The translations under genes were made by a program, and so were the position numbers. Shown here piece after piece: positions 238 through 45,963 of a stretch of 64,000 nt of DNA. The stretch spans positions 24,466 to 88,465 of the forward strand of contig JBGSRW010000008.1 in assembly GCA_041737355.1 (NCBI GenBank), written 5' to 3'. Position 1 is the first letter of the stretch. The number at the start of each line of letters is the position of its first letter. Under the pieces are notes generated by a model. It worked only from the letters and a program-made list of their open reading frames with translations, ran no database searches and was not told the DNA's origin. The DNA is from Patescibacteria group bacterium. Its GTDB lineage: Bacteria > Patescibacteriota > Patescibacteriia > XYB2-FULL-38-15.

Positions 238-1866
238 ATGATTAAAAATTTGCTGAACGGAGAATCTAAAACAATTACCGGGGCTGCTCTTCTTTTGGGA
301 GCAGCTTCTTTGGCGTCCCGTTTTTTGGGAGTTATCCGCGACAGGGTTCTGGCCGGACAATTCGGGGCGGGCGATACTCTCGATGTTTATTACGCCGCCT
401 TCCGTATCCCTGATTTTATTTTCAATCTCCTGATTTTGGGCGCTCTCTCGGCCGGCTTCATTCCAATTTTTACCGCGGCGCTTTCTTCAGCGAAAGAGAG
501 GGGGGATAATTTTGGCAAGGCGTGGGATATCGTGAGCGGACTGATAAACATAATGGGCATTCTTTTAATTTTTCTTTGCGGTTTGTTTATCGTTTTAAGC
601 CCTTTTATTGTTCCGGTTATCACTCCTGGTTTTGGCGCGGAAAAAATGGCACTGACCGTGACAATGACCCAGATCATGATGCTTAGTCCGCTTTTTTTGG
701 GTTTGAGCAATATTTTCGGCGGAGTTCTCCAATCCTTCAAAAGATTTTTTATTTATTCCCTGGCTCCTATTTTTTATAATCTCGGTATTATTCTCGGAGC
801 TTTATTTTTTACCAAATGGTGGGGAATTTGCGGTTTGGCGGTCGGGGTAATTCTTGGGGCGATCGCCCATATGCTGATCCAGCTACCGGCTGTTGTTTCC
901 CTGGGTTACCGTTACCGGTGGATTTTCAATCTTGCCGACCAGAATGTCCGGCAAATCGGCCGGCTTATGATTCCCCGGACTCTCGGTCTGGCCGTTTCTC
1001 AAGTCAATCTGGTGGTGATGACAGTTATTGCCTCGACTCTTGTTCCGGGAAGTCTCGCCGTTTTTAATCTTGCCAACAATCTCCAATATTTTCCGATCGG
1101 AATCATCGGTATTTCTTTTGCCGTCGCCGCTTTTCCGGTTTTGGGGGAATGCGCGGCCGGCGGGCGAAAAGAGGAAATGGTTAAAAATTTTTCCCACTCC
1201 GTCCGGCAGATTTTGTTTTTTATCGTTCCAGCCGCTGTTCTGCTTTTGGTCTTGCGTGCCCAAATTGTTCGCGTTATTTTTGGATCGGGTGAATTTGATT
1301 GGGAGGATACGATTTTGACCGCCGATACTTTGGCTTTTTTTGTTACGAGTTTGTTTGCCCAAGCCCTGGTTCCGCTTCTTGCCAGATTTTTTTACGCGTT
1401 GCAAGATACTAAAACGCCCTTTTTTATTGGTTTATTTTCAGCCGTAGTTAATGTTTTTTTAGCAATATATATGGCCGAAAGATGGGGCGTGATCGGCCTG
1501 GCCGCGGCTTTTTCGGCTTCCAGTATTTTAAATTTTTGTCTTCTTTGGATTTTGCTGCGGGTAAAGTTCGGTTCGCTTGATGAGAAAAGGATTCTCGGTT
1601 CGGCATTTAAAATCAGCGTGGCCGCGGTTCTGATGGCGTTCAGTATCCAGGGCATGAAAGCCGCTCTCGCGCCATTCGTTGATATGCAGACTTTTTTGGG
1701 TATTTTTGGTCAAGGTTTGGGAGCCGGCTTGGTTGGCCTTATTGTTTTCGTTATTTCCGGATTTCTCCTCGGTTCAAGGGAAATGTTCGCGGTCCGCGAC
1801 GCGGTGAAGTACAAATTATTCAAAATAAAAAGGCCGATTATTAATGATGAGGAGGGGCAAAGGTAA
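238..1866 (+). CDS. murJ: lipid II flippase MurJ/MviN
   Basis: 542-aa polytopic membrane ORF. The N-terminus ASRFLGVIRDRVLAGQFGAGDTLDVYYAAFRIPDFIFNLL is typical of MurJ. Confidence 0.85.
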   Translation: MIKNLLNGESKTITGAALLLGAASLASRFLGVIRDRVLAGQFGAGDTLDVYYAAFRIPDFIFNLLILGALSAGFIPIFTAALSSAKERGDNFGKAWDIVSGLINIMGILLIFLCGLFIVLSPFIVPVITPGFGAEKMALTVTMTQIMMLSPLFLGLSNIFGGVLQSFKRFFIYSLAPIFYNLGIILGALFFTKWWGICGLAVGVILGAIAHMLIQLPAVVSLGYRYRWIFNLADQNVRQIGRLMIPRTLGLAVSQVNLVVMTVIASTLVPGSLAVFNLANNLQYFPIGIIGISFAVAAFPVLGECAAGGRKEEMVKNFSHSVRQILFFIVPAAVLLLVLRAQIVRVIFGSGEFDWEDTILTADTLAFFVTSLFAQALVPLLARFFYALQDTKTPFFIGLFSAVVNVFLAIYMAERWGVIGLAAAFSASSILNFCLLWILLRVKFGSLDEKRILGSAFKISVAAVLMAFSIQGMKAALAPFVDMQTFLGIFGQGLGAGLVGLIVFVISGFLLGSREMFAVRDAVKYKLFKIKRPIINDEEGQR

Positions 1867-3644
1867 TGCGGGAAAAAATTAGAAATTTTTGTATTATTGC
1901 TCATATTGATCACGGAAAGTCGACTTTAGCCGACCGTCTTTTGGAATTTACCGGAACGGTAGCTAGGCGGGATATGAAAGATCAAATGCTTGACATGATG
2001 GATCTTGAACGCGAAAGGGGAATTACCATCAAGCTTCAGCCGGTGCGCATGGATTACAAAGAACATATTTTAAATTTAATTGATACGCCAGGACACGTCG
2101 ATTTCAACTATGAAGTCTCTAGGTCACTTGCCGCCGTGGAAGGCGCGCTTCTTTTGGTTGATGCGACGCAAGGTGTCCAGGCCCAGACGCTCGGTAATTT
2201 ATATTTGGCACTGGAACAGAATCTAACAATCATTCCGGTAGTCAATAAAATTGATCTTAAAAATGCCGAAGTGGAAAAAACCGTCCAGGAAATTACCGCC
2301 CTGATCGGCTGCAAAAAGGAGGAGGTAATTTTGGCTTCGGGGAAAAGCGGGGCCGGAGTTCCGGAAATTTTGGAAGCAGTTGTTAATAAAGTTCCTTCGC
2401 CAAAAGGAGAAATAAGTAAACCGCTGAGGGCGTTGATTTTCGATTCAAAGTACGACGACTACAAGGGAGTCGTCGCTTATGTCAGAGTTGTGGACGGCGA
2501 AGTAAAAAGGGGGGATAAAATATATTTGGCGGCCACCAAAATCGAAAGCGAAGTTTTAGAGGTTGGATATTTTAAACCAAAGTTTGTTCCGGCCGGAAAA
2601 TTATCAGCCGGGGAAATCGGTTATATTGTGACCGGGCTCAAGGAAATAGAAAGATGCCGGGTCGGCGATACTATAACGGTTCACGATCCGGATCTGACAG
2701 TCCAAAGTTTACCGGGGTATAAAGAAGTTAAACCGATGGTTTTTGCCGGAATTTTTTGCAAGGAAGGGGACGATTTTCCGAAACTGCGCGAAGCAATTTT
2801 AAAATTAAAATTGAACGATGCGGCTCTGACTTTTGAAACCGAGCAGTCCAAGGCGCTCGGCTTCGGTTTTCGCTGCGGTCTTTTGGGTTTGTTGCATCTT
2901 GAAATTGTGGAAGAGCGTCTGCGGCGAGAACATAATCTTGACGTGATTGTTACCGTGCCGTCGGTAGCGTACCGTATTACCAACAATAAGGGAGAAGTGT
3001 TGATTATTAAAAGTCCGTCGGAATTGCCCGACATGAGCCATATCAAATTGATCGAAGAGCCGTGGATTAAAATTGATGTGGTTTCTCCGAGCACCTACAT
3101 CGGCGGTATCATGCAAATGGTGCAGGAAAAGAGGGGAGTATATATCGACACGGAATATTTGGATGCCGACCGGGTTATCTTGCATTATGAAATTCCTCTC
3201 TCGGCAATTCTTGTGGATTTTTACGATAAATTAAAAAGTGTGAGCTCCGGCTATGCTTCATTGAATTACGAATTTTTCGGATATAGGGAGGCCGATGTTT
3301 TGAAAATGGATATTTTGGTGGCGACCGAACCGGTTGAGGCGCTCGCGACAATCGTCTACCGCGACACGGCCCAGGATGTCGGGCGGAGAATTGTCCAGTC
3401 TTTAAAAAAAGTTTTGCCGCGCCAGATGTTTGAAGTTAAAATCCAGGCGGCGCTTGGCGGGAAAATTGTCGCCTCGGAACACTTGCCGGCGATGAAAAAG
3501 GATGTGACAGCCAAGCTTTATGGGGGAGATGTAACAAGAAAGAATAAATTGCTTGAAAAACAGAAAAAGGGCAAGAAAAAGATGAAAGCGTTGGGCAAAG
3601 TTGACATTCCACCTGAGGCATTTTTAGCGGTTCTGAAGAAATAG
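1866..3644 (+). CDS. lepA: translation elongation factor 4 (LepA)
   Basis: 592 aa with a GTPase G1 motif (AHIDHGKST) and DTPGHVDF. The C-terminal LepA-type domain is present. The ATG overlaps the murJ stop (TAATG). Confidence 0.95.
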   Translation: MREKIRNFCIIAHIDHGKSTLADRLLEFTGTVARRDMKDQMLDMMDLERERGITIKLQPVRMDYKEHILNLIDTPGHVDFNYEVSRSLAAVEGALLLVDATQGVQAQTLGNLYLALEQNLTIIPVVNKIDLKNAEVEKTVQEITALIGCKKEEVILASGKSGAGVPEILEAVVNKVPSPKGEISKPLRALIFDSKYDDYKGVVAYVRVVDGEVKRGDKIYLAATKIESEVLEVGYFKPKFVPAGKLSAGEIGYIVTGLKEIERCRVGDTITVHDPDLTVQSLPGYKEVKPMVFAGIFCKEGDDFPKLREAILKLKLNDAALTFETEQSKALGFGFRCGLLGLLHLEIVEERLRREHNLDVIVTVPSVAYRITNNKGEVLIIKSPSELPDMSHIKLIEEPWIKIDVVSPSTYIGGIMQMVQEKRGVYIDTEYLDADRVILHYEIPLSAILVDFYDKLKSVSSGYASLNYEFFGYREADVLKMDILVATEPVEALATIVYRDTAQDVGRRIVQSLKKVLPRQMFEVKIQAALGGKIVASEHLPAMKKDVTAKLYGGDVTRKNKLLEKQKKGKKKMKALGKVDIPPEAFLAVLKK

Positions 3645-3859: not shown

Positions 3860-4044
3860 GTGCCAGAGAAATTTGGAGGAGGAAGTCTTCGCGGACCATT
3901 TATTGGTAACCGCGTGACTCGGTGTTCGGTTGAGTTAAAGCTCGGTTTTCCCGTTTGGGACTACTAAGATTCAACTCGCCAAAACGCCATTGCTGTTCCA
4001 ATGCTAATTGGAGCGGCGCGCTCACCTCCAAATTCCTCTGGCAC
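3860..4044 (+). promoter_or_regulatory. structured 5' leader domain closed by a 20-bp stem
   Basis: GTGCCAGAGAAATTTGGAGG (3860-3879) pairs with CCTCCAAATTCCTCTGGCAC (4025-4044) at 19 of 20 positions. The stem encloses about 145 nt with several local hairpins (for example CGCGGACCA..TGGTAACCGCG and CCAAT-GCTA-ATTGG). It lies between the promoter and the SD of the 4131 ORF. Confidence 0.55.
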
Positions 4045-4130
4045 ATCTCCGTGAAAAATCGGAGGGCCAAAGGTCAGACTGTGGATGTTCCCGGTCTGAT
4101 TTTAGTAAACGCAAATAAGGAGGTTTTCTG

Positions 4131-5384
4131 ATGGAGAACGGCAGCAAGGAGATTGTGGTTGGCAAGGAGCCGACGGCTACGGCCGAGGCGTTCCTCGAGC
4201 CGCCGAGCGAGGACGACGAGTGGTTGCTCCTGGATTTCAATCCGGCGGCGACCGAGTCCGCGCCGGCCGTGCCCGAGACGCCGAAGCCCAAGCCGCCGCG
4301 CGTCTGCGCGATCTGCCAGCACCCCTCCGGGAATTCGGTGGGCAAGATCAAGCGCGGGCGGATCGCCGAGGTCGAGCACGAAGGGATGAAGCTGCTCACG
4401 CTCGAACCAATCTGCGAACCGTGCGGCGAGAAGTTGCCGCCCGAGGAGCGGAAGAGGCTCTTCAAGGCGGGGTACCTCATCTCCCTGATCGGCGAGAAGA
4501 ACCGCGAGATGCGCGAGTTCGAGGCGGCCAAGGCCTACTGGGCTGCGGTCTTCGCCGGTACGGCAGAGCGGATGCCCGAGGCTCGCAAGACGCCCGAGGA
4601 GATGCTCTCCTGCGGGGTGCCCGGCTGCCCCCGCTGTCACGATCAGGTCGGCCACAAGGTCGGCCACTTCGTGGCGATGACGATCGGCGGCATGCCGACG
4701 CTTCTCGGGGTCTGCTCCTTCCAGGCCGCGGCCTTGGCACAGTGCGGGGTCGAAAAGAAGGGCATCGTCGTGACGACGAAGTTCTCCGTGGCCGCCCCGA
4801 TCGTCGAGGCGGAGAACGCCAGGCTCCAGGCCTTCGAGAAGGCCAAGAGTTTCTGGCTCGCCGTGGCCGAAGGCGAGGCGGCGGTCGAGGCGCGGGCCGA
4901 GAAGACCGAGCGCGGCGACATCTACCGCTGCGGCGTCCCCGGCTGCAAGTGCCGGGAGCACGGCGACCGGCCGGTCGACTACTTCGTGGTCTTGGACGGC
5001 CAGCCCGAGATGCCCATCGCGGGTGTCTGCCGATACCAGTATGCGGCGCTCCGGACCTCCGGGGTGAAGATCTTCGCCGCGAACAACAACGACGGGATGG
5101 GCCTCGCGCGGTGCGCCAAGCACCGCAACTGGCTCCTCGGCCAGGCCAAGAGGGCCATCCGCGACGTCCGGAGGCCGGACGGAATCGGCGGCGGTCTCTC
5201 CCGTTTCCGCTCGCCCGAAGAACAGGCGCGGATCCGCGAGGAGAAGCGCCGGACGTTCGAGGAGCGCGAGGCCAAGCGCCGCTCCCGGCAACTCGAGCGG
5301 GCCAAGGCCTCCTCCAGCAAGGCCGGCTGCGGCAAGAAGGCCAGCAGCAAGAAGGGCGGCAAGGGCGGCGGCAAGAAGCACTAG
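4131..5384 (+). CDS. orphan protein with three tandem Cys/His-rich modules and a Lys/Gly-rich C-terminal tail (gene A)
   Basis: SD AAGGAGG (4117-4123) sits 7 nt before the ATG. Codon third positions are GC-rich in this frame. The ORF has three repeated modules and the tail ...SSSKAGCGKKASSKKGGKGGGKKH. Confidence 0.7.
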   Translation: MENGSKEIVVGKEPTATAEAFLEPPSEDDEWLLLDFNPAATESAPAVPETPKPKPPRVCAICQHPSGNSVGKIKRGRIAEVEHEGMKLLTLEPICEPCGEKLPPEERKRLFKAGYLISLIGEKNREMREFEAAKAYWAAVFAGTAERMPEARKTPEEMLSCGVPGCPRCHDQVGHKVGHFVAMTIGGMPTLLGVCSFQAAALAQCGVEKKGIVVTTKFSVAAPIVEAENARLQAFEKAKSFWLAVAEGEAAVEARAEKTERGDIYRCGVPGCKCREHGDRPVDYFVVLDGQPEMPIAGVCRYQYAALRTSGVKIFAANNNDGMGLARCAKHRNWLLGQAKRAIRDVRRPDGIGGGLSRFRSPEEQARIREEKRRTFEEREAKRRSRQLERAKASSSKAGCGKKASSKKGGKGGGKKH

Positions 5385-5419
5385 CTGGCCGGCCGCTCTC
5401 CCACCAATTTGTTCTTTTC

Positions 5420-5542
5420 TTGGAGCAAGTAGTCTGTGCAATGCAGACACTGTTCGTCAATCACTCTAAGGTGAACGGCGACAGGATCTTGCTCCAAGTC
5501 CTTTTCCTCCAAATCAGCGTAAGTTGGTCTGGAGAAAAGGGA
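5420..5542 (+). repeat. 123-nt structured repeat, copy 1 (R1), just after the gene A stop
   Basis: Identical base for base to 6114-6236. It contains a perfect 10-bp closing helix, TTGGAGCAAG/CTTGCTCCAA, around two hairpins. A second imperfect hairpin of about 12 bp follows (5499-5542). Confidence 0.9.
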
Positions 5543-5597
5543 ATTAGCTCTTTGGCAATTTCGGCGCATAGCGCCGTAGAAAGAAAGGAGATAGTTG

Positions 5598-5930
5598 ATG
5601 GTTCAGGTTCTGATGCTGGCCCTGTTCAGCGTCGCCAAGCGCGACGAACGCGAGGCGAGCGACGAGGGCAGTGAGACCGACGCGGTCGAGCTGCCCGAGG
5701 ATTCGGTCAACTGGCGGGCGGTTCGTTGGCTGGGCGTCGCGAAGATGCCGCGCCGTCGGGGTGGTCGGGCGGCCAACCGTTGCCTTGCCGACATCCCGCC
5801 GCCACCGGTTCGTTTCTCGCGCGAAGGGTTTGACGGACTTCATTCGTGGAAGCGTCAGACTCCGGCCCGCCGTCAGTGGGCCAAGCATCTTCGGAAATCT
5901 TGGGGGCGCGGAAAGAAGGTGGAGGTATGA
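5598..5930 (+). CDS. orphan Arg-rich protein, 110 aa (gene B)
   Basis: SD AAGGAG (5585-5590) sits 7 nt before ATG 5598. Third positions are GC-rich. The stop overlaps the next start (ATGA at 5927-5930). Confidence 0.55.
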   Translation: MVQVLMLALFSVAKRDEREASDEGSETDAVELPEDSVNWRAVRWLGVAKMPRRRGGRAANRCLADIPPPPVRFSREGFDGLHSWKRQTPARRQWAKHLRKSWGRGKKVEV

Positions 5931-6106
5931 AGAAGGAGTGTCGCAAGAGCGTGCCGGAGGTCAAGACGGGAGAGGGTGTTTACATCCTCCGCGTCATGCC
6001 CCAGCCGTCCGTCTGCGCGCACGAGGCGGTCCGTCCCTCCACCCGGCCGATCATACGCTCCGCCATCAAGATCGTCGGCCAGCACGGCCGCGACTGTCTC
6101 CCATAG
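5927..6106 (+). CDS. orphan protein, 59 aa (gene C)
   Basis: ATG 5927 is preceded by GGTGGAGG and overlaps the gene B stop. Third positions are GC-rich. The ORF ends at TAG 6104-6106, directly before repeat copy 2. Confidence 0.5.
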   Translation: MKKECRKSVPEVKTGEGVYILRVMPQPSVCAHEAVRPSTRPIIRSAIKIVGQHGRDCLP

Positions 6107-6113
6107 TTTGTTC

Positions 6114-6236
6114 TTGGAGCAAGTAGTCTGTGCAATGCAGACACTGTTCGTCAATCACTCTAAGGTGAACGGCGACAGGATCTTGCTCCAAGTCCTTTTC
6201 CTCCAAATCAGCGTAAGTTGGTCTGGAGAAAAGGGA
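6114..6236 (+). repeat. 123-nt structured repeat, copy 2 (R2), just after the gene C stop
   Basis: 100% identical to 5420-5542. Weaker similarity extends upstream (CTCCCA..TTTGTTC). Confidence 0.9.
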
Positions 6237-6286
6237 TTCCAAAATTTTTTAGCCATTTTTACGGCTAGTCAGATCCCACGCAAGGG

Positions 6287-6315
6287 CACCGCCAGTTGGC
6301 GGTGTTTTTGTTTTT
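6287..6315 (+). terminator. intrinsic terminator closing the GC-rich island
   Basis: CACCGCC (6287-6293), loop AGTT, GGCGGTG (6298-6304), then TTTTTGTTTTT. Confidence 0.8.
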
Positions 6316-6489: not shown

Positions 6490-8220
6490 ATGAAGTGGAA
6501 AGTCGCCGAACCGATCAGCGAAGAATTCAGAAATAAATTTCCGGAGATCGATCCGGTTATTTTGCAATTACTCGCTAACCGTGGGGTAAAAACCCAGGAA
6601 CAGATTGATGAATTTCTGTATCCAGATTACGGGCCTGATATTCACGATCCGTTTTTATTTTTGGATATGGAAAAAGCGGTCGAGCGGGTTTTCCGGGCGG
6701 TGGAGAAAGGAGAAAAAATTACGGTTCATGGCGATTACGACGCCGACGGAGTTTGCTCGGCATTGATCGTAGTCAGTACGCTCGAAGCCATGGGTGCTAA
6801 AGCCGAGGTTTATCTGCCGCACCGCGAACTCGAAGGGTATGGACTGAATATGCAAACAGTTGAAGAGTTGGGGAAAAGAGGGACAAATCTTATTATTACA
6901 ACCGACTGCGGCATCAGTAATCGGGAAGAGATAAAAAGAGCGGTTGAACTTGGAATGGAAGTAATTGTCACCGACCATCATGCCGAGCCGCTTAATTTGC
7001 CCGAGGCAGCTTTGGCAATTATCAATCCCCATTTGGCGCGAGAAAAGTATCCTTTTAAGGAATTGTCCGGGGCGGGAGTAGCTTTCAAATTCGTTCAGGG
7101 GATTTTACATAAAATAAAAACAACGGCGCCAAAAATAGAATTCAGGGAAGACCCGGAGGGATTTGAAAAATGGCTTCTGGATCTTACGGCTATTGCCACG
7201 ATTGCCGACATCATGCCCCTCTTGGGCGAGAACCGGACGATCGTAAAATACGGCTTGATTGTCCTGAACAAAACCAAACGGCTGGGATTGAAAAAAATGA
7301 TTGATTCGCTGGGCTTGAACAAGGCAAAATTGCTTGACGCAAGAAACGTATCTTTTCAGATTAGTCCGCGGCTGAACGCGGCCGGCCGGATCGACCACGC
7401 CAACCAGGCCTATGAACTTTTAAAAACATCGGACGGGAACGAAGTTGATAAATTGGTCGCGGCCCTGAATAAAACCAACGAAGACAGGCAAGCGCTTTCC
7501 GAGCGCGTAACGGCCGAAGCCAAGGAGAAAATAGGAGAAGAGGTTGGCGAAAGAAAAGTTTTGTTCGCCGTGGGTAAGGGTTGGCCGATAGGTATTGTCG
7601 GATTGGTAGCCGGGAAAATAGCCGATAATTTATGGCGGCCGACTTTTATTATGGCAGAAAAAGAGGGGAACATTATGGGGTCGGGAAGGAGTATTCCGGA
7701 ATTTGATATTATGGAAGGGCTCAGGGAGGCGAAAGAATTTTTGTCACATTACGGCGGACACGCCGGAGCCTGCGGATTTACCCTGAAAAATAAAAAAGAT
7801 CTGAAGAGGTTTGAAAAGACCCTGGAGAAATTTGCTGAAAAAAAATTAGCCGGCTCGGAACTTGTCCCAAGCCTGAATATTGACTCGGAAGTTAAACTGG
7901 AAAAAATAAATTGGGAGCTTTTCGAGCTCTTGGAAAAATTTTCACCATTCGGGAAGGGGAATGAGCGGCCGAGATATTTGGGGAGGGGTTTGACGGTCGA
8001 AAGCTTTGAAGGGGTGGGAAATAATGGAAATCATTTACGCATAAATTTGAGCCACGAAAACGGCCAAAAGAAAAAATTTATAGGTTTTTGTTTTGGAAGC
8101 TGGTGCGAGAAATTAAAAGCGGGAGATAAAATTGATGTAGTTTTTGAAATTGATGTTAATGAATGGAACGGGAACAGGGAACTGCAGATGAAAATTATTG
8201 ATTTAAAACATAGCGAATAA
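6490..8220 (+). CDS. recJ: single-stranded-DNA-specific exonuclease RecJ
   Basis: 576 aa with DHH-family motifs (HGDYDADGVCS, TTDCG, VTDHH) and a DHHA1-like GGHAGACG. Confidence 0.9.
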   Translation: MKWKVAEPISEEFRNKFPEIDPVILQLLANRGVKTQEQIDEFLYPDYGPDIHDPFLFLDMEKAVERVFRAVEKGEKITVHGDYDADGVCSALIVVSTLEAMGAKAEVYLPHRELEGYGLNMQTVEELGKRGTNLIITTDCGISNREEIKRAVELGMEVIVTDHHAEPLNLPEAALAIINPHLAREKYPFKELSGAGVAFKFVQGILHKIKTTAPKIEFREDPEGFEKWLLDLTAIATIADIMPLLGENRTIVKYGLIVLNKTKRLGLKKMIDSLGLNKAKLLDARNVSFQISPRLNAAGRIDHANQAYELLKTSDGNEVDKLVAALNKTNEDRQALSERVTAEAKEKIGEEVGERKVLFAVGKGWPIGIVGLVAGKIADNLWRPTFIMAEKEGNIMGSGRSIPEFDIMEGLREAKEFLSHYGGHAGACGFTLKNKKDLKRFEKTLEKFAEKKLAGSELVPSLNIDSEVKLEKINWELFELLEKFSPFGKGNERPRYLGRGLTVESFEGVGNNGNHLRINLSHENGQKKKFIGFCFGSWCEKLKAGDKIDVVFEIDVNEWNGNRELQMKIIDLKHSE

Positions 8221-16121: not shown

Positions 16122-16204
16122 TTATAAATGTGGATAATTGAATATTTAAATCCTATGCTCGTGACTTAGAAGCTTAAAGCCGCGAGCCGAAAGGAGGTGA
16201 AAGA

Positions 16205-16648
16205 ATGTTTAAAAATAAAAAAGGTTTCACTTTGATCGAATTGTTGGTGGTTATCGCCATCATCGGTCTTCTCTCGACTTTGGCGGTCGTTGCCTTGAGC
16301 AGCGCCAGAACCAAAGCCAGAGACGCGAAAAGAACTGCCGACATGAAGCAGGTTCAGACAGCCATGGAGCTCTATTATAATACTAATAGCGCTTATCCTT
16401 CATGCGCCGCCGGTACATTGGTTTCGGCTTGCGCCGCCTTAGCACCTGATTACTTGCCGGGCGTTTTGACCCTGAAAGATCCGGGTGGAGTTGCCGGTGC
16501 TTGCGCCGATCCGGCAGCAGCGAAATGTAACTACGCCTTTGGTACTGCCGCAGCGAACGAAGGCTATAGAATTACTTTCTGGCTTGAAGGAGCGACCGGA
16601 GATTTGGCTGCCGGAGCCCACAGAGTTACGGCTATGGGAATCCAGTAA
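16205..16648 (+). CDS. pilA: type IV pilin, paralog 1
   Basis: Class III signal peptide KKG|FTLIELLVVIAIIGLL with Glu at +5. SD is AAGGAGGTG. Confidence 0.9.
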   Translation: MFKNKKGFTLIELLVVIAIIGLLSTLAVVALSSARTKARDAKRTADMKQVQTAMELYYNTNSAYPSCAAGTLVSACAALAPDYLPGVLTLKDPGGVAGACADPAAAKCNYAFGTAAANEGYRITFWLEGATGDLAAGAHRVTAMGIQ

Positions 16649-16700: not shown

Positions 16701-16755
16701 GGGACATTTTGTAGTATAATTAATTTAATATACCAAAAAGAAAGGAGGTGAAAGA

Positions 16756-17217
16756 ATGTTTAAAAATAAAAAAGGTTTCACTTTGATCGAATTGTTGGTG
16801 GTTATCGCCATCATCGGTCTTCTCTCGACTTTGGCGGTCGTTGCCTTGAGCAGCGCGAGAACCAAAGCCAGAGATTCAAAACGCGTGGCCGACATGAAGC
16901 AGGTTCAGACAGCCATGGAAATGGTTTTCAGCGAAGCCAACAGCTACGCCTTGGCTGGATGCACAACGGCCGGTAATAAGGTCAGCCTCTGCACCACGCC
17001 GCTCTCAACTTATTTGCCGAACGTCGCCAATCTTAAGGATCCGAAGGGGTTAAGCGCTTGCGCCGTAGCTTGTGATGGAACAATCACCGCGGCCTGCGAT
17101 TACTCGGTTAAAACCGTGCCGACTGCAAGTACTTACGAGTTTTGTTTCTATTTGGAAACAGCTACGGGCGATTTAGCGGCCGGAGCCCATAAAGTTACGC
17201 CAGCTGGGATTCAATAG
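16756..17217 (+). CDS. pilA: type IV pilin, paralog 2
   Basis: It has the same prepilin N-terminus. The first 101 nt of the CDS plus 16 nt of the RBS are identical to paralog 1. The C-terminal domain diverges. Confidence 0.9.
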   Translation: MFKNKKGFTLIELLVVIAIIGLLSTLAVVALSSARTKARDSKRVADMKQVQTAMEMVFSEANSYALAGCTTAGNKVSLCTTPLSTYLPNVANLKDPKGLSACAVACDGTITAACDYSVKTVPTASTYEFCFYLETATGDLAAGAHKVTPAGIQ

Positions 17218-23197: not shown

Positions 23198-24595
23198 ATG
23201 AAATTGAATGAACTTACAATTAAAGAAGCGCACGAAGGATTGTTGAAGAAAAAATTTACTTCGGTTGAATTGACTGAGGCCTGTTTAGTCGAGATAAAAA
23301 AGCTGAATAAAAAGCTCAACGTTTTTGTTACTGTTACCGAATATGAGGCGATTGAAGCGGCCAAAGCGGTTGATAAAAAAATCGCAAAAGGCGGAAAGAT
23401 AGGAATTCTGGAAGGCATTCCCGCGGCGATCAAAGACAATATTTTGGTCAGAGATATCCGTTGTACGGCGGCCTCAAGGATTTTAGAAAACTATGTCGCT
23501 CCATACGATGCCACGGTTATAGAAAAATTAAAATCGGCCGGGGCAATAATTTTGGGGAAAACCAATCTGGACGAATTTGCCATGGGCGGCTCGACGGAAA
23601 ATTCGTATTTCGGTCCGACAAAAAATCCGCATGATCCGGCGTGCGTTTCCGGCGGATCCTCCGGCGGTTCGGCCGCGGCAGTGGCAGCCAATATGTGCAT
23701 TTGGGCGCTTGGCTCGGACACCGGCGGTTCGGTCCGAGAGCCGGCGTCTTTTTGCGGAGTGACCGGCATGAAGCCGACTTACGGCGCTGTTTCCCGCTAC
23801 GGCCTGATGGCCATGGCTTCGAGTTTGGACCAAATCGGGCCGATTACGAAAAACGCGGAGGACGCGGAGATTATTTTTGAGGCAATCCGGGGCAAGGACA
23901 AGATGGATTCCACAACGGTTGAAAGGGAAATAAAGAAAAATAACAAGATATTAAAAATCGGCTTGCCGAAAGAATATTTTGCCGAAGGGCTGGACAGCAA
24001 AGTGGAAAAGAAAATCAGGGAAGCGGTGGCAAAACTTGAAGGAGTCGGAATAAAAATTCAGGAAGTAAGCTTACCGCACACCGAATATTCGCTGGCGGTT
24101 TATTACTTGATTATGCCGGCCGAGGTTTCCTCAAATCTCGCGCGCTACGACGGGGTAAGATACGGCTACAGCACCAAAAAATCAAAAACACTTCTGGAAA
24201 ATTATTTGAAAAGCCGGGCCGAAGGTTTTGGCGACGAAGCGAAGCGCAGAATCATGCTTGGGACTTACGCCCTTTCGGCCGGATATTATGACGCATATTA
24301 TTTGCAGGCACAAAAGATGCGGACCTTGATTCGGCAGGATTTCGAAAAAGTTTTCAAGGAAGTTGATTGCCTTATCACTCCGACCGCGCCGACAACCGCT
24401 TTCAAAATCGGAGAAAAAATCAATGATCCGCTGACAATGTATCTTGCCGATATTTATACTGTTTCCGCCAATGTTGCCGGAGTCCCGGCCATTTCCGTTC
24501 CCTGCGGCTTAGCCAATAAAATGCCGGTCGGTTTGCAGATTATGGCGTCGTGGTTTAACGAAGAAAAATTATTCCAAGCAGCTAAATTAATTTAA
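23198..24595 (+). CDS. gatA: Asp/Glu-tRNA amidotransferase subunit A
   Basis: It carries the amidase signature (GGSSGGSAAAVAA, DTGGSVR). No gatB follows. Confidence 0.9.
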   Translation: MKLNELTIKEAHEGLLKKKFTSVELTEACLVEIKKLNKKLNVFVTVTEYEAIEAAKAVDKKIAKGGKIGILEGIPAAIKDNILVRDIRCTAASRILENYVAPYDATVIEKLKSAGAIILGKTNLDEFAMGGSTENSYFGPTKNPHDPACVSGGSSGGSAAAVAANMCIWALGSDTGGSVREPASFCGVTGMKPTYGAVSRYGLMAMASSLDQIGPITKNAEDAEIIFEAIRGKDKMDSTTVEREIKKNNKILKIGLPKEYFAEGLDSKVEKKIREAVAKLEGVGIKIQEVSLPHTEYSLAVYYLIMPAEVSSNLARYDGVRYGYSTKKSKTLLENYLKSRAEGFGDEAKRRIMLGTYALSAGYYDAYYLQAQKMRTLIRQDFEKVFKEVDCLITPTAPTTAFKIGEKINDPLTMYLADIYTVSANVAGVPAISVPCGLANKMPVGLQIMASWFNEEKLFQAAKLI

Positions 24596-39584: not shown

Positions 39585-39585
39585 A

Positions 39586-39615
39586 TTGACTAATACGCAG
39601 AAATAGTTCTAAATA
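39586..39615 (+). promoter_or_regulatory. candidate promoter of the GC-rich island d
   Basis: TTGACT (39586-39591), an 18-nt spacer, TAAATA (39610-39615). The SD AGGAGGG follows. Confidence 0.4.
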
Positions 39616-39635
39616 AAACTAGAAGGAGGGTAGCT

Positions 39636-39821
39636 ATGGCAGAAGAAAATAGCGGGAAACCGCGGGATGATCGAAGTGATCGCGACCGTGATGTTCCAGG
39701 AATGCCCAAGGGATGGCGGCCCGGAGACCTGATCGTGATTCCGCTTGGACCTGAAGACGAATTTCCTGAGAGCAGGATGGATTTCTCTCTCCCGTTCTGG
39801 GTGGGAACGCCCGTGGAGTAG
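39636..39821 (+). CDS. orphan acidic/charged small protein, 61 aa
   Basis: SD GAAGGAGGG sits 6 nt before the ATG, and the gene has its own terminator. The GC-rich region is open in several frames, so the frame choice rests on the SD and start codon. Confidence 0.45.
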   Translation: MAEENSGKPRDDRSDRDRDVPGMPKGWRPGDLIVIPLGPEDEFPESRMDFSLPFWVGTPVE

Positions 39822-39856
39822 CTCGGCCCAATCTCCACTACTGCTTGTGCCATCAT

Positions 39857-39887
39857 CGGCGCCGAGCTCCGCTCGCGCCGTTTTTTT
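39857..39887 (+). terminator. intrinsic terminator
   Basis: CGGCGCCGAGC, loop TCC, GCTCGCGCCG (one bulge), followed by TTTTTTT. Confidence 0.8.
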
Positions 39888-39892
39888 ATCCA

Positions 39893-39920
39893 TTGATTTT
39901 TTATATTAGTATGGTAAGGT
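39893..39920 (+). promoter_or_regulatory. candidate promoter of the 39948 gene
   Basis: TTGATT (39893-39898), a 16-nt spacer, TAAGGT (39915-39920), with TG at 39912-39913 (extended -10). Confidence 0.45.
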
Positions 39921-39947
39921 AAATCGATTTCCTAAAGGAGGGAGGGA

Positions 39948-40814
39948 ATGCAAAAAAAGGAGATGTCTCCTGAAAGTGTGAGCGAGTGCGCTCGTCTGAC
40001 TGAAGCGGAACTGGCCAACTTGGGCGTTGTCCTTTCCGCCTACCGTTCTTTCCGAGGCGACCGGCGTCGACATATCGCCTACGTCACGATGCCGATCACG
40101 ACCGGCCGGCGGTTGCGCGACATCCTGACAACGCGCCACGCGAAGAGCGCCGCAGAACTTGCGGCCAAAATCGGCAGAGAGGCCTTTTTTGACCTCGTGA
40201 TCAGACCAAACATCGCGGAGGGAATTGCTTTTGCCGACAGAGTCGCAGCAAGGGATTCACTGCTTTGCGTTGCGCCTTCGGTGTTCAGTGCCAGGTGCTG
40301 GCAATGGTCGCAGGATGCCTACATGTCCCTTTGGTACCGCGTTCTGGGAGAAATGGCCGGAGCGCATTATCTCATGGACGGCTGGGAATACTCCGTCGGC
40401 GGCGTGAAAGAAGCGATGTTTTCCATGGCCATGCAGTGGCGCATCTTCCGGCGCTACAACATCCACAAGATGGCGCAGGCCTGGGGTCTAGAGAATTTTC
40501 ATCCCGGCATGAGCCCGCAAGCGGAAATAGCCGAGCTTGAGCGCATGTGGAGCATCCGCCTTTACGACGAACAGGGCAAGGAACTTCGCATCGATCAAAT
40601 CCTGGCGATGGTTGTTCGCGCAATCAAGGAGCTGGCAAAAAACGGCTTGCCGTACGAGGATCTGCTCGGCCCCGCCCGGAACCTGAAGGGGATGCCCATA
40701 CTGTCACCGCTTATCGGCGGCGGCAACCGGTATGACGAGCCGTTTGTTCCGGAAGTGACGGATGCGTACGTGATGGCGGCAGATGAGCTCGTGGCATTCG
40801 AGGCCGCCCATTAA
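39948..40814 (+). CDS. nucleoside 2-deoxyribosyltransferase-like (DUF4406-like) domain protein with an unknown C-terminal domain, GC-rich
   Basis: IAYVTMPITTG ... W.QDAYMSLWYRVLGEMAGAHYLMDGWEYSVGGVKEAMFSMAM fits my recollection of the DUF4406 pattern (hYhAGPhoG ... GWE.S.G...E...A). SD is AAAGGAGGGAGGG. Confidence 0.55.
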   Translation: MQKKEMSPESVSECARLTEAELANLGVVLSAYRSFRGDRRRHIAYVTMPITTGRRLRDILTTRHAKSAAELAAKIGREAFFDLVIRPNIAEGIAFADRVAARDSLLCVAPSVFSARCWQWSQDAYMSLWYRVLGEMAGAHYLMDGWEYSVGGVKEAMFSMAMQWRIFRRYNIHKMAQAWGLENFHPGMSPQAEIAELERMWSIRLYDEQGKELRIDQILAMVVRAIKELAKNGLPYEDLLGPARNLKGMPILSPLIGGGNRYDEPFVPEVTDAYVMAADELVAFEAAH

Positions 40815-40842
40815 CGCGGCAGGAGTCGCTCATAGTCGAGAT

Positions 40843-40876
40843 AACGACGCGGACAGCAGTTTGCGTCGTTCTTTTT
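40843..40876 (+). terminator. intrinsic terminator
   Basis: AACGACGC (40843-40850) / GCGTCGTT (40863-40870) followed by CTTTTT. Confidence 0.75.
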
Positions 40877-40877
40877 A

Positions 40878-40906
40878 TTGATTTTTTCTATAAATCGCGG
40901 TAAAAT
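40878..40906 (+). promoter_or_regulatory. promoter of the flippase/glycosyltransferase pair
   Basis: TTGATT (40878-40883), a 17-nt spacer, TAAAAT (40901-40906). The ATG lies 14 nt downstream with no SD, so the mRNA is near-leaderless. Confidence 0.5.
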
Positions 40907-40919
40907 TGGATAATTACTT

Positions 40920-42401
40920 ATGGCGTATGAACCCGGAAAAATAGCGAAAAATACGATATACCTGACGATTGCCACAGTCGGACAGAAAGTCCTGGCTTTT
41001 TTGTATTTTATAATGATTGCTCGCCTCGCCGGAGTTGAAGGCACGGGCAAGTATTTTTTCGTTGTTTCCTTTACGACGATTTTTTCTATTTTTGTAGATC
41101 TCGGACTATCCTCGGTTCTCATTCGTGAAACAGCCAAAAACAGGGAAGTGGCCGGAAAATATTTGGGAAATATCTTAGGGGCTAAATTGATTCTTGGCGT
41201 TTTTACTTATCTGGCGGTTGTTTTGACAATCAATATAATGGACTATCCGTCAGCGACTAAATTGATGGTTTATCTTTCCGGTATCGTTATGTTATTAGAT
41301 TCGTTTAATGTAACTTTTTACGCCATTTTCCGCGGCCGGCAGAATTTGCGTTACGAATCGGTCGGAGTTGTCGCGAGTGAAGCTTTAATTATAATTTTCG
41401 GCGCCGCGAGTTTATTTCTTCACGCGCCTTTATATTTTTTGCTTCTTGCCCTGATGTCGGGAAGCATTTTTAATTTCTGTTTTTCTCTGATTTTACTTTT
41501 TAAAAAAACCGACGTCCGGCCACATTTTTCTTGGGATAAAAGTATTTTGATGACGTTGTTTAAAATCGCTTATCCCTTCGCCTTGGCCGGTCTCTTCGTG
41601 AAAATTTATTCTTATCTCGATTCGGTGCTGCTTTCAAAAATGGTTGGCGACACGGCGGTCGGTTTTTGGAGCGTGGCTTATAAACTCACTTATTCTTTTC
41701 AATTTATCCCTATGGCTTTTGCCGCGGCGATGTTCCCGGCTATGAGCGCCTATTTTTGCTACGACAAAAGCCGGCTGAAACAGACTTTCGAGCGGGCGAC
41801 TTTTTATCTGGCTCTTTTGGCTGTTCCTATCGCTTTTGGGATTTTTTCCCTGGCAAGACCGATCGTTCTGACTCTTTACGGATCAGATTACCTATCTTCG
41901 GTTTTACCGCTCCGGGTTGCCGTTTTTACCGTAATTTTTATCTTTTTGAATTATCCGGTGGGCTCGCTCCTTAACGCCTGCGACAGGCAAATGACGAACA
42001 CTCTGATCATGGGGGCGAGCATGGTCTTGAATATTATTTTGAATCTTGTTCTGATTCCGCGTTTAAGTTTTGTCGGGGCGGCAGTTTCCACTCTTGTTTC
42101 CCATTCGTTTCTCTATATTTTGGGGATGATTTTTGCCAATAAGATTGTGGTTTACGGGAAAAGTTTTATTTTTGGATCGTTGGCTAAAATAATTTTTTCA
42201 GCCAGTTTGATGAGCGCATTAATTATATTTTTGAATAAATTTATTTCTTTCTGGTTTTTGGTTCCAATTGGCGGGGCGGTTTACTTCGGATTTCTTTATA
42301 TTTTGCGGGGTATTAGTAAAGAAGATTTCTCGGGAATTTTAAAGTCTTTGAAGAAAAAGCCGGCCGCGGAAATGATCGAAGGAGAAAAGGAAAAAGTATG
42401 A
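40920..42401 (+). CDS. MOP-superfamily polysaccharide/oligosaccharide flippase (Wzx-like)
   Basis: 493 aa with about 12-14 TM segments and the N-terminal pattern typical of polysaccharide biosynthesis protein families. Confidence 0.75.
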   Translation: MAYEPGKIAKNTIYLTIATVGQKVLAFLYFIMIARLAGVEGTGKYFFVVSFTTIFSIFVDLGLSSVLIRETAKNREVAGKYLGNILGAKLILGVFTYLAVVLTINIMDYPSATKLMVYLSGIVMLLDSFNVTFYAIFRGRQNLRYESVGVVASEALIIIFGAASLFLHAPLYFLLLALMSGSIFNFCFSLILLFKKTDVRPHFSWDKSILMTLFKIAYPFALAGLFVKIYSYLDSVLLSKMVGDTAVGFWSVAYKLTYSFQFIPMAFAAAMFPAMSAYFCYDKSRLKQTFERATFYLALLAVPIAFGIFSLARPIVLTLYGSDYLSSVLPLRVAVFTVIFIFLNYPVGSLLNACDRQMTNTLIMGASMVLNIILNLVLIPRLSFVGAAVSTLVSHSFLYILGMIFANKIVVYGKSFIFGSLAKIIFSASLMSALIIFLNKFISFWFLVPIGGAVYFGFLYILRGISKEDFSGILKSLKKKPAAEMIEGEKEKV

Positions 42402-44555: not shown

Positions 44556-45503
44556 TTATTTCTTTTTAGCAAAATAAATATCCGCTTCAATCATTTTATC
44601 ATCCTTGAAAAAATGATGTGTGAAATAAACATTTCCTTCGTTGTCGGTTGAAGCTTCTCCCGCCAGGGGGGAGAACATCAATTCAGGCTTTTGCCATTCT
44701 CCGTTATTTTTTTTCGATCTCCATATTCCGTAGTCTCTTGTAATCCAAAGTTCGCTGTTGTCGGGGCTTAGGGCCGGATAACCGTCATCTCTTTCGGTAT
44801 TAACAGCCGAGACATTGGCGGGCTCTTGCCATTCTCCGTTTACTTTTTTTGACATCCAAATATCCCTGCCCCCCTTTCCACCGGCCTTGTTATCCGCGTG
44901 AAAATATAATTCCTGGCCGTCGCTTGATATATGTAACTCTCCCGTTTTGTATTCTTCGGTTTTTAGTTCTTCGTCGGCAATCCTCCAGTTTTGCCATTTC
45001 CCGTTAATATAATCAGCTTTGAACCAATGAATTCCCTCGTACCCCTCTCTAACGGTGCAAAAATACATTAGGTCATTTTGGACAAATTCACAGCCGTCCC
45101 CGTTTGCCTTATTGGCTTTTTGCAAAAGCACTCTTTCTGGTTTTTGCCACTCTCCATTGATTTTTTTTGCAAAATAGATTCCGGTTACGTTATCCGAAAC
45201 TTGTTTTTCGACAGGAACTCTTACGTCCGGAGTGAAAAAGAAATAAAGCGTTTGGCCGTCCGGCATAATAAAAGCTGAATCCTCGGCACCAGCCGTATTG
45301 ACCGGTGAGGGAAGGGGAGCGGGATCTTCGTAATCCGCAGAGAGCGACTTTACCGGAGCGGCGTCGGTTTTGGGAGTCATTTTGACCGCTTCGACGGGAA
45401 TTTTACTTTCTCGGGTTGGCAATTCGGTTGGCGTTTGTTCACATCCGGCGCCAAGAGCGGCGACGCTGATTATCGCGGCGCAAAGCGATAAGAGTTTATT
45501 CAT
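44556..45503 (-). CDS. secreted or lipoprotein-like beta-propeller (PD40/TolB-like repeat) protein
   Basis: The signal peptide MNKLLSLCAAIISVAALGAGC precedes a repeated NGEWQKPE-type motif. ATG 45503 is preferred; it overlaps the upstream gene stop. Confidence 0.65.
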   Translation of the reverse strand: MNKLLSLCAAIISVAALGAGCEQTPTELPTRESKIPVEAVKMTPKTDAAPVKSLSADYEDPAPLPSPVNTAGAEDSAFIMPDGQTLYFFFTPDVRVPVEKQVSDNVTGIYFAKKINGEWQKPERVLLQKANKANGDGCEFVQNDLMYFCTVREGYEGIHWFKADYINGKWQNWRIADEELKTEEYKTGELHISSDGQELYFHADNKAGGKGGRDIWMSKKVNGEWQEPANVSAVNTERDDGYPALSPDNSELWITRDYGIWRSKKNNGEWQKPELMFSPLAGEASTDNEGNVYFTHHFFKDDKMIEADIYFAKKK

Positions 45504-45963
45504 TTTTTGATTTTTCGTATTTATATTTAAATTTATTGAATTCTTCTTCATATGCATCGTCGCTGATTTTTTTAAAACCGGCTCGCTCGTGGGAAACAAT
45601 TGACGGGCGGTTTTTTCTATCGATGGTAGCTATTAATGTGTTTAACCCCTCTTTGCTCATCAGCGCTTCGTAGAATTTTGGCACCAGCTCCTTACCGCGG
45701 TGTTTCGGGTCAATGACAATATGGGTAACATTTTGTTCATCTTCGGTATCGTAAACGCCAACAATGCCAAGTTTTTCTCCATCCTCGCCGATAACCGTGT
45801 GGTACTTCTGGTTTTTGCAGTTTTCCTGGCCAAGAGCAATCCAGCCATCTTCTCCTTCGAGAGTTTTAAAATAGTCCGCATCGAAATCAGCCAGTTCTTC
45901 AACTTTTATTTCTTTTTTTTCTTGCATTTCTATCGTCGGTCCGTTTGCTTCAGGATTTGTCAT
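45496..45963 (-). CDS. GNAT-family N-acetyltransferase
   Basis: 155 aa with a motif-A-like IVIDPKHRGKELVPKFYEAL and a C-terminal ...HERAGFKK. Confidence 0.65.
   Translation of the reverse strand: MTNPEANGPTIEMQEKKEIKVEELADFDADYFKTLEGEDGWIALGQENCKNQKYHTVIGEDGEKLGIVGVYDTEDEQNVTHIVIDPKHRGKELVPKFYEALMSKEGLNTLIATIDRKNRPSIVSHERAGFKKISDDAYEEEFNKFKYKYEKSKNE

Follow-up and report, generated by a model that had tools for sequence, protein, structure and literature searches.

A DUF4406-related protein of the N-(deoxy)ribosyltransferase fold encoded by a one-gene insertion in a Patescibacteria genome

A GC-rich gene for a protein of 288 amino acids lies between queA and a flippase gene in a 64,000-nucleotide stretch of DNA from a Patescibacteria group bacterium (GenBank assembly GCA_041737355.1, contig JBGSRW010000008.1, positions 24,466 to 88,465 of the forward strand; the whole stretch is hereafter the window). 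Its product appears to belong to a divergent protein family related to DUF4406 (PF14359), within the N-(deoxy)ribosyltransferase-like superfamily. In the window the genes run in the order of a ribosomal-protein/rpoA/rplQ/rplM/rpsI block, queA, a 61-amino-acid open reading frame (ORF), the 288-amino-acid gene, a Wzx/MurJ-type flippase and a GT4 glycosyltransferase. The features of the interval are as follows (loci of other genomes carry the prefix L).

39636..39821, + strand: gene for a 61-amino-acid acidic protein, with its own Shine-Dalgarno (SD) sequence and terminator-like site
39892..39947, + strand: upstream module of the 288-amino-acid gene, made up of ATTGATTTTTT (39892-39902, -35-like), GGTAAGGT (39913-39920, -10-like) and the SD (39937-39941); read from the sequence, and also kept in L001
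39903..40887, + strand: segment of about 985 bp with the 288-amino-acid gene, found in the window and L001 and missing from the otherwise collinear L041; junction comparison, repeat spacing 985
39948..40814, + strand: complete gene for the DUF4406-related N-(deoxy)ribosyltransferase-fold protein, ATG start, stop codon 40812-40814; based on the ORF, homologues, dN/dS and the structural model
40843..40887, + strand: terminator-like hairpin (40843-40870) and T-run, then the second ATTGATTTTTT (40877-40887), which heads the promoter-like module of the flippase gene

The 288-amino-acid ORF is a real, selected gene. An SD sequence, GGAGG, stands 6 nucleotides before the start codon, and 3' of the stop codon there is a hairpin of 12 bp followed by a T-run (40843-40876). 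Comparison with the closest relative, P0001 of L001 (78% identity), gives a ratio of nonsynonymous to synonymous substitution (dN/dS) of 0.16 at a dS of 0.90, and the gene is therefore under purifying selection over its whole length. From its sequence, the upstream module is a putative promoter of the gene. An earlier interpretation made from the DNA letters alone (the sequence-only reading) had described the gene as GC-rich and foreign in composition, and both descriptions hold: GC content is 58%, vs 45% in the rest of the window, and GC at third codon positions is 0.69, vs 0.45-0.47 in both flanking genes, queA and the flippase. The difference from the host flanks reaches +12-13 points only in the lineage of the window and L001; in 19 other loci it ranges from -2 to +7 points.

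A search of 5.8 billion clustered proteins found 72 homologues of the 288-amino-acid protein, nearly all of 270-315 amino acids and none with a Pfam domain on record; the few that are named come from Patescibacteria (Daviesbacteria, Liptonbacteria, "Patescibacteria group"). Alignment of 68 homologues, which represent the close subfamily of about 285 amino acids (alignment A1), reveals 19 invariant positions: R36, G37, R39, R40, Y45, P49, G53, N88, G92, P110, S111, W120, Y125, Y130, E135, W146, Y148, G151 and E155. S149 and G152 are conserved in at least 90% of the sequences. When the A1 profile was run against 1.84 billion representative proteins, 750 relatives were found at E<=0.001, most of them about 200 amino acids long and matching query residues ~20-165. 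The subfamily thus far amounts to about 70 clusters at 90% identity, and the wider family to about 750 representatives at 50% identity. An alignment of 47 members of the wider family (A3; the query as first row and 46 relatives, mean identity about 23%) retains E155, G53 and N88 without exception. E155 is the sole invariant acidic residue across A3, and it is flanked by a Gly that is likewise invariant and by a Ser that is almost so. The two motifs picked out by the sequence-only reading are thereby borne out: YVTMPITTG occupies residues 45-53, with Y45, P49 and G53 invariant in A1, and DGWEYSVGGVKEAMFSMAM occupies residues 144-162, with W146, Y148, G151 and E155 invariant. The conserved acidic catalytic residue that it called for is E155, which is invariant in both alignments and aligned with the DUF4406 Glu.

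In a pattern scan that took one genome from each GTDB species, 17 loci were found. Of the record titles, ten name lineages of Patescibacteria (Paceibacter, Paceibacterota, Daviesbacteria, Jorgensenbacteria, Lloydbacteria, Buchananbacteria and "Patescibacteria group"), two name Nanoarchaeota or Nanoarchaeia, one has just "archaeon", two have just "bacterium" and three have "uncultured Gammaproteobacteria". The last are records of metagenome-assembled genomes: L011 (CAZKEE010000008.1), L014 (CAYOJH010000007.1) and L017 (CAYFZV010000042.1). The labels of L014 and L017 are probably wrong, because their pheT...gene synteny is common to Paceibacter-type Patescibacteria contigs. One distant relative adjoins an archaeal RpoH gene, and tblastn against 50,697 phage records returned no homologue. 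The family has so far been seen only in Patescibacteria and DPANN archaea, and no description of it was found in the literature.

Assignment of the family depends on comparison of profiles. The sequence-only reading had placed the protein in the DUF4406/nucleoside deoxyribosyltransferase (NDT) fold family; the homology is upheld at the level of profiles, but the protein itself matches neither PF14359 nor PF05014 at E<=10. PF14359 is matched individually by 30 of the 47 A3 members (best E 1.2e-5), and no other Pfam family is matched by more than 2. The A3 members that were checked individually against PF14359 score 13-18.6 bits, under its gathering threshold of 22 bits; by Pfam's own criterion the 288-amino-acid protein lies outside PF14359. 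For the DUF4406 side of the comparison, eight phage proteins were fished with a consensus-like bait and then verified against Pfam, each matching PF14359 at E 1e-19 to 1e-34 (alignment A4; the bait failed to retrieve the PDB entry 1t1j). Alignment of A3 with A4 by hhalign gave a probability of 96.7% and an E-value of 3.9e-10.

In the relaxed hhalign alignment, query residues 41-168 span DUF4406 residues 1-92, with a gap of about 31 residues in DUF4406 after the first loop. The paired positions (DUF4406 first) are Y5-Y45, P9-P49, G12-G53, N17-N88, P38-P110, S73-S149, G75-G151 and E79-E155; G145-W146 also align, and the A4 invariants coincide with positions that are invariant, or almost so, in the query family. 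Relative to the DUF4406 pattern Y-x-A-G-P-x-x-G...N...P...G-W-x-x-S-x-G-A-x-x-E, the query family has T/S-M in place of A-G, and Gly152 in place of the Ala that follows Gly. The DUF4406 profile in turn matches the Trypanosoma brucei NDT 2a0k at E 1.8e-5, laying "S-k-G-A-k-l-E" over "D-C-G-T-A-F-E". The DUF4406 Glu is thus aligned to the Glu of DCGTAFE, and E155 therefore falls at the NDT Glu position. The structural model of the protein likewise has the NDT alpha/beta fold with the predicted Glu nucleophile on a helix after the third or fourth strand. Direct searches were less informative: phmmer and both family profiles gave chance-level matches only among PDB sequences and recovered no PDB NDT, and no Foldseek match in PDB or BFVD reached E<=0.001, the few weak ones being to viral NDT-like or unnamed proteins over ~112-120 residues at a template-modelling (TM) score of ~0.62. 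Fold and homology together make it very probable that this is a divergent family, as yet without a model of its own, inside the N-(deoxy)ribosyltransferase-like superfamily. The sequence comparisons make DUF4406 its nearest named relative, a link that is solid although indirect.

The AlphaFold2 model of the protein (mean per-residue confidence, pLDDT, 88.4; predicted TM score, pTM, 0.87) and the alignments divide the chain as follows.

Residues 1-15: disordered
39996..40067, + strand: residues 17-40, family-specific N-terminal helix leading to the invariant R-x-x-R-G-x-R-R cluster (R36, G37, R39, R40) just before beta-1; A1 and model
40068..40451, + strand: residues 41-168, core aligning with the whole DUF4406 domain 1-92; hhalign of A3 vs A4
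Residues 43-47: beta-1, then the P-I-T-T-G-(K/R)-R loop
40080-40106, + strand: motif Y45-G53 (YVTMPITTG)
40107-40208, + strand: residues 54-87, helical insertion of ~31-34 residues without counterpart in DUF4406
Residues 88-163: remaining DUF4406 core (N88, P110), with the catalytic helix at 150-163
Residues 144-162: DGWEYSVGGVKEAMFSMAM
40392..40412, + strand: S149-V-G151-G-V-K-E155 catalytic-helix motif; E155, codon 40410-40412, is the predicted nucleophile
40452..40553, + strand: residues 169-202, insertion specific to the ~285-amino-acid subfamily, two short helices (172-178, 190-201) that follow the catalytic helix and precede the final core strand
40554..40703, + strand: residues 203-252, last core beta-strand (203-208 at its widest, 204-206 at its narrowest) and two helices (215-231, 237-252), common to the ~200-amino-acid relatives; A3 and model
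40704..40811, + strand: residues 253-288, subfamily-specific tail, a low-confidence loop (253-271) and terminal helix (272-287)

The basic cluster R36, G37, R39 and R40 is a putative phosphate-binding element. The insertion at 169-202 is missing from the ~200-amino-acid relatives in A3 and is skipped by the hhalign alignment, which matches the strand at 203-208 with the terminal strand of DUF4406. The tail is poorly conserved in A1, and pLDDT drops to 63-71 at residues ~251-270. The C-terminal ~100 residues therefore comprise a single insertion, the final part of the core fold and a brief tail, with no fused second domain. The extra C-terminal domain of the sequence-only reading thus dissolves: residues 203-252 are the last core strand and two helices of the ~200-amino-acid relatives, and its description of the region as unassigned is accurate only in part; residues 169-202 and 253-288 alone are specific to the subfamily. 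The model, with its high pTM, indicates that the whole chain forms a single compact unit.

Comparison with related genomes bears on how the gene came to its present site. The window is collinear with L001 and L002, where the NDT-like gene is 78% identical and an unrelated 126-amino-acid ORF (membrane-anchored in L001) replaces the 61-amino-acid ORF between queA and the NDT-like gene. In L041, the order is queA, a 63-amino-acid ORF and the flippase; nothing lies between the last two, and this is thus an empty site. The window lineage has a one-gene insertion of foreign GC content where its relative has none. After L001, and leaving aside P0005 (a truncated 163-amino-acid fragment of 90% identity), the next-closest homologues are on contigs of 58-63% GC (L011, L012). 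The GC excess and the GC content of these homologues fit horizontal acquisition from a higher-GC Patescibacteria donor.

The ~985-bp segment is bounded by an 11-nucleotide direct repeat, ATTGATTTTTT, at 39892-39902 and 40877-40887. The sequence occurs four times in the window vs 0.58 expected, the others being at 45156-45166 and, on the minus strand, 24414-24424. A module made up of a hairpin terminator, ATTGATTTTTT, some 9 nucleotides and G(G/A)TA(A/G)(A/G)(A/G)T was found at all five junctions compared in the window, L001 and L041; in the window it lies at 39863-39920 and 40843-40905. The module is probably a local promoter consensus of which ATTGATTTTTT would be the -35-like part. The repeat was also considered as a target-site duplication, but its place in the module at every aligned junction is the simpler explanation, and no transposition is claimed.

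The queA-flippase interval is itself a variable slot (window 39585-40920; L001 7349-8965; L040 4893-5945; L041 1188-1558). It holds the 61-amino-acid ORF and the NDT-like gene in the window, the 126-amino-acid ORF and the NDT-like gene in L001, a small ORF alone in L041, and a small ORF with 63- and 103-amino-acid ORFs in L040. The acidic 61-amino-acid protein, with its own SD and terminator-like site, exists much as the sequence-only reading had it but is no orphan: with five homologues, 59-72% identical to it, it makes up a family of six members that share the invariant pattern GMPKGWRPG..LIVI...DF..PFW.G.P. All members with a located context lie directly 3' of queA (L040 5001-5189; L041 1239-1430), and the genes are 56-57% GC in genomes of 42-45% GC. 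A role as antitoxin or partner of the NDT-like protein is ruled out, as either gene occurs without the other; both L041 and L040 have the small ORF after queA and lack the NDT-like gene. The small protein is conserved in this lineage and functionally unlinked to the NDT-like gene. A functional link of the NDT-like gene to queA and queuosine is likewise unsupported, the adjacency being confined to the window lineage and a product of the insertion.

About nine independent neighborhoods of the family were annotated with Pfam.

Window and L001: queA ... flippase
L004: GT2, GH1, gene, EamA, GH5, ROK
Six or seven loci: pheST ... rhodanese, HU, PspC, gene ... dnaE
L007: TraG-like ... gene ... HAD, MnmA
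L036: purL/M, purB, purE, purC, DUF3276, gene, ruvC
L037 and L019: phosphoribosyltransferase (PRTase), PNP, cytidine deaminase, RmuC and CarS, divergent from the gene
L039: amidohydrolase, SDR, gene, MFS
L025 (nanoarchaeal): adjacent HD-domain gene
L027 (archaeal): thermosome directly upstream

Clustering of neighbors over 28 loci showed synteny at the level of lineages only (pheT...PspC...dnaE; queA...flippase) and no conserved operon partner across lineages. No defense genes occur in the annotated neighborhoods. On the high-GC Patescibacteria contig of L006, a gene for a SKI-type P-loop kinase (shikimate-kinase family, PF01202; 6888-7397) overlaps the stop codon of the NDT-like gene; the syntenic relatives L008 and L038 lack this kinase gene.

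Several other features of the window deserve mention. A GC-rich island at 4000-6300 (65-73% GC vs ~44%), between lepA (1866-3644) and recJ (6490-8220), departs from its surroundings more strongly than does the NDT-like gene. Within it, a 417-amino-acid ORF (4131-5384, + strand) encodes Cys-rich segments that repeat internally (CGVPGC...) and a tail rich in Lys and Arg; Pfam has no match to this ORF, and no Rfam RNA was found in the island or elsewhere in the 64-kb window. A perfect 126-nucleotide direct repeat (5417-5542 and 6111-6236, spacing 694 nucleotides), one copy ending each GC-rich sub-segment of the island, suggests duplicated or modular cassettes. Another direct repeat, of 180 nucleotides and 95% identity (16189-16368 and 16740-16919), covers the starts of two adjacent ORFs of ~150 amino acids (16205-16648 and 16756-17217), which are probably tandem paralogues. 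Finally, a 41-nucleotide element occurs three times in 44686-45179 (68-100% identity to the reference copy), upstream of or within minus-strand genes at 44556-45963, and its third copy includes ATTGATTTTTT.

What the protein might do can be considered in the light of its superfamily. NDT, DNPH1/Rcl, MilB and LOG enzymes all cleave an N-glycosidic bond using the superfamily Glu. In monophosphate-specific members, Ser replaces the sugar-hydroxyl-binding Asp of NDTs, and basic residues hold the 5'-phosphate. By analogy, E155 on the catalytic helix (S149-x-G-G-x-x-E155) would attack or activate C1' of a (deoxy)ribosyl substrate, so that the N-glycosidic bond is broken and the base released. Y45 and the P-I-T-T-G-(K/R)-R loop would lie near the substrate's sugar or phosphate. 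The basic residues R36, R39, R40, R55 and R131, with Ser in place of Asp, would point to a phosphorylated substrate, a nucleoside or deoxynucleoside monophosphate (NMP or dNMP), as in DNPH1, MilB and LOG. In physiological terms, the enzyme may serve nucleotide salvage or clean-up (sanitizing) in Patescibacteria and DPANN archaea, and the gene would have reached the window lineage by horizontal transfer, in a cassette of one gene that includes a promoter-like module and a terminator. N-glycosidic chemistry is somewhat favored on these analogies, while the choice of a monophosphate substrate is tentative. As a whole, the leading proposal, that the protein is a Glu-dependent N-glycosidase which takes phosphorylated nucleosides as its substrates and serves nucleotide salvage, seems evenly balanced between being right and wrong.

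Several results weigh against this proposal. Pfam, NCBIfam, PADLOC and PHROGs gave no match at E<=10 to the 288-amino-acid protein (nor to the 61-amino-acid ORF), and the close subfamily A1, taken alone, aligns with DUF4406 weakly, at an hhalign probability of 14-26%. No DUF4406 member with a published activity appears in the literature mentioning the domain that was searched, and the chemistry is for that reason taken over from enzymes that are less closely related. The case for a phosphorylated substrate made from Ser in place of Asp draws on general knowledge of the DNPH1 and NDT active sites. Most neighborhoods of the gene are unrelated to nucleotides. On the side of the proposal, nucleotide-metabolism neighbors occur in two or three of the roughly nine contexts (the pur genes of L036 and the PRTase, PNP and cytidine deaminase genes of L037), and the HD-domain gene of L025 is counted there too, but the support that such neighbors give to a salvage role is weak at best.

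Other explanations share the fold and differ in its use. The protein might be a true nucleoside 2'-deoxyribosyltransferase that exchanges bases via a covalent Glu-deoxyribosyl intermediate, and so interconverts scavenged deoxynucleosides in nucleotide-auxotrophic cells. This is unlikely, given that it has no PF05014 match and only 10-14% identity to NDTs, that Ser149, as in DUF4406, stands at the aligned position of the NDT sugar-binding Asp, and that the invariant arginines suggest an anionic substrate. Alternatively, the fold might be kept for nucleotide binding without glycosidic cleavage, as in a SLOG/LOG-like ligand sensor or scaffold. Conservation of the Glu, the Ser/Gly motif and the Tyr over a family of ~23% identity is the pattern expected of an active site, and makes a non-catalytic protein improbable.

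A mobile one-gene cassette also brings to mind a toxin or defense effector that depletes nucleotides or NAD+, like the NDT-like effector of retron Eco1 or the TIR-domain NADases, and the sequence-only reading had likewise raised a phage or defense context. That context found no backing: PADLOC, PHROGs and the tblastn search of phage records were all negative, and the neighbors are housekeeping genes (ribosomal, queA, pheST, pur and dnaE). Nor is there a reverse transcriptase, noncoding RNA, sensor or antitoxin partner nearby, or an Rfam match in the window. Equality of gene and host GC, together with synteny kept across genomes in several lineages, indicates long vertical residence, which also counts against a defense role. 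We consider such an effector quite improbable, no less so than the non-catalytic protein.

If the preferred proposal of an N-glycosidase in nucleotide salvage is taken further, the family would be a lineage-restricted one that processes scavenged nucleotides in host-dependent Patescibacteria and DPANN archaea, either releasing ribose-5-phosphate and free bases from host NMPs and dNMPs or removing modified or toxic nucleotides, and that moves as a one-gene cassette. This extended scenario is doubtful; if true, ultra-small symbionts would have a step of nucleotide salvage that had escaped notice. The prevailing view is that Patescibacteria and DPANN archaea rely on scavenged nucleotides, and many proteins of both groups lack annotation. 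One such un-annotated family can now be placed in the N-(deoxy)ribosyltransferase superfamily, with the Glu at the catalytic position identified, and this placement provides a concrete hypothesis, namely that the enzyme is an N-glycosidase of (d)NMPs. Present domain libraries also lack a model of the family, and a new profile could supply one.

Among known systems, no sequence similarity to the 288-amino-acid protein was detectable in DNPH1/Rcl (2khz), the MilB/BcmB CMP hydrolases (4ohr, 4jen) or LOG (5wq3, 1wek), and it lacks the LOG motif PGGxGTxxE. The structural-genomics target 1t1j (APC5043, a hypothetical protein), which we take to be Pseudomonas aeruginosa PA1492 of the N-(deoxy)ribosyltransferase-like superfamily, is 11% identical and is matched by neither family profile. 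The NDTs (PF05014; T. brucei 2a0k, and 6evs, 7o62 and 1s2d) offer no match at the level of sequence; the Asp of DCGTAFE in 2a0k, just before the Gly-x-x-x-Glu segment, corresponds to Ser149, and the 288-amino-acid protein carries extra elements relative to these enzymes. The closest resemblance is to DUF4406, a domain of small phage and bacterial proteins that are variously annotated as "nucleoside deoxyribosyltransferase", "CMP N-glycosidase" or "hydrolase". In both, the conserved positions follow one another in the same order (Y...P..G, N, P, GW.S.G..E), and both have the terminal strand. Unlike the compact single domain of ~90-130 residues in DUF4406 proteins, however, the 288-amino-acid protein is about three times longer (288 vs ~93-128 amino acids) and is found in Patescibacteria and DPANN chromosomes rather than in phages. 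Its additions are the Arg-rich N-terminal helix (residues 17-40, missing from the canonical DUF4406 proteins of A4), the insertions of ~31-34 and ~34 amino acids, and the helical C-terminus. No new kind of system and no defense or regulatory mechanism is indicated; the fold and likely chemistry are familiar, and it is in architecture and lineage that the family is distinct.

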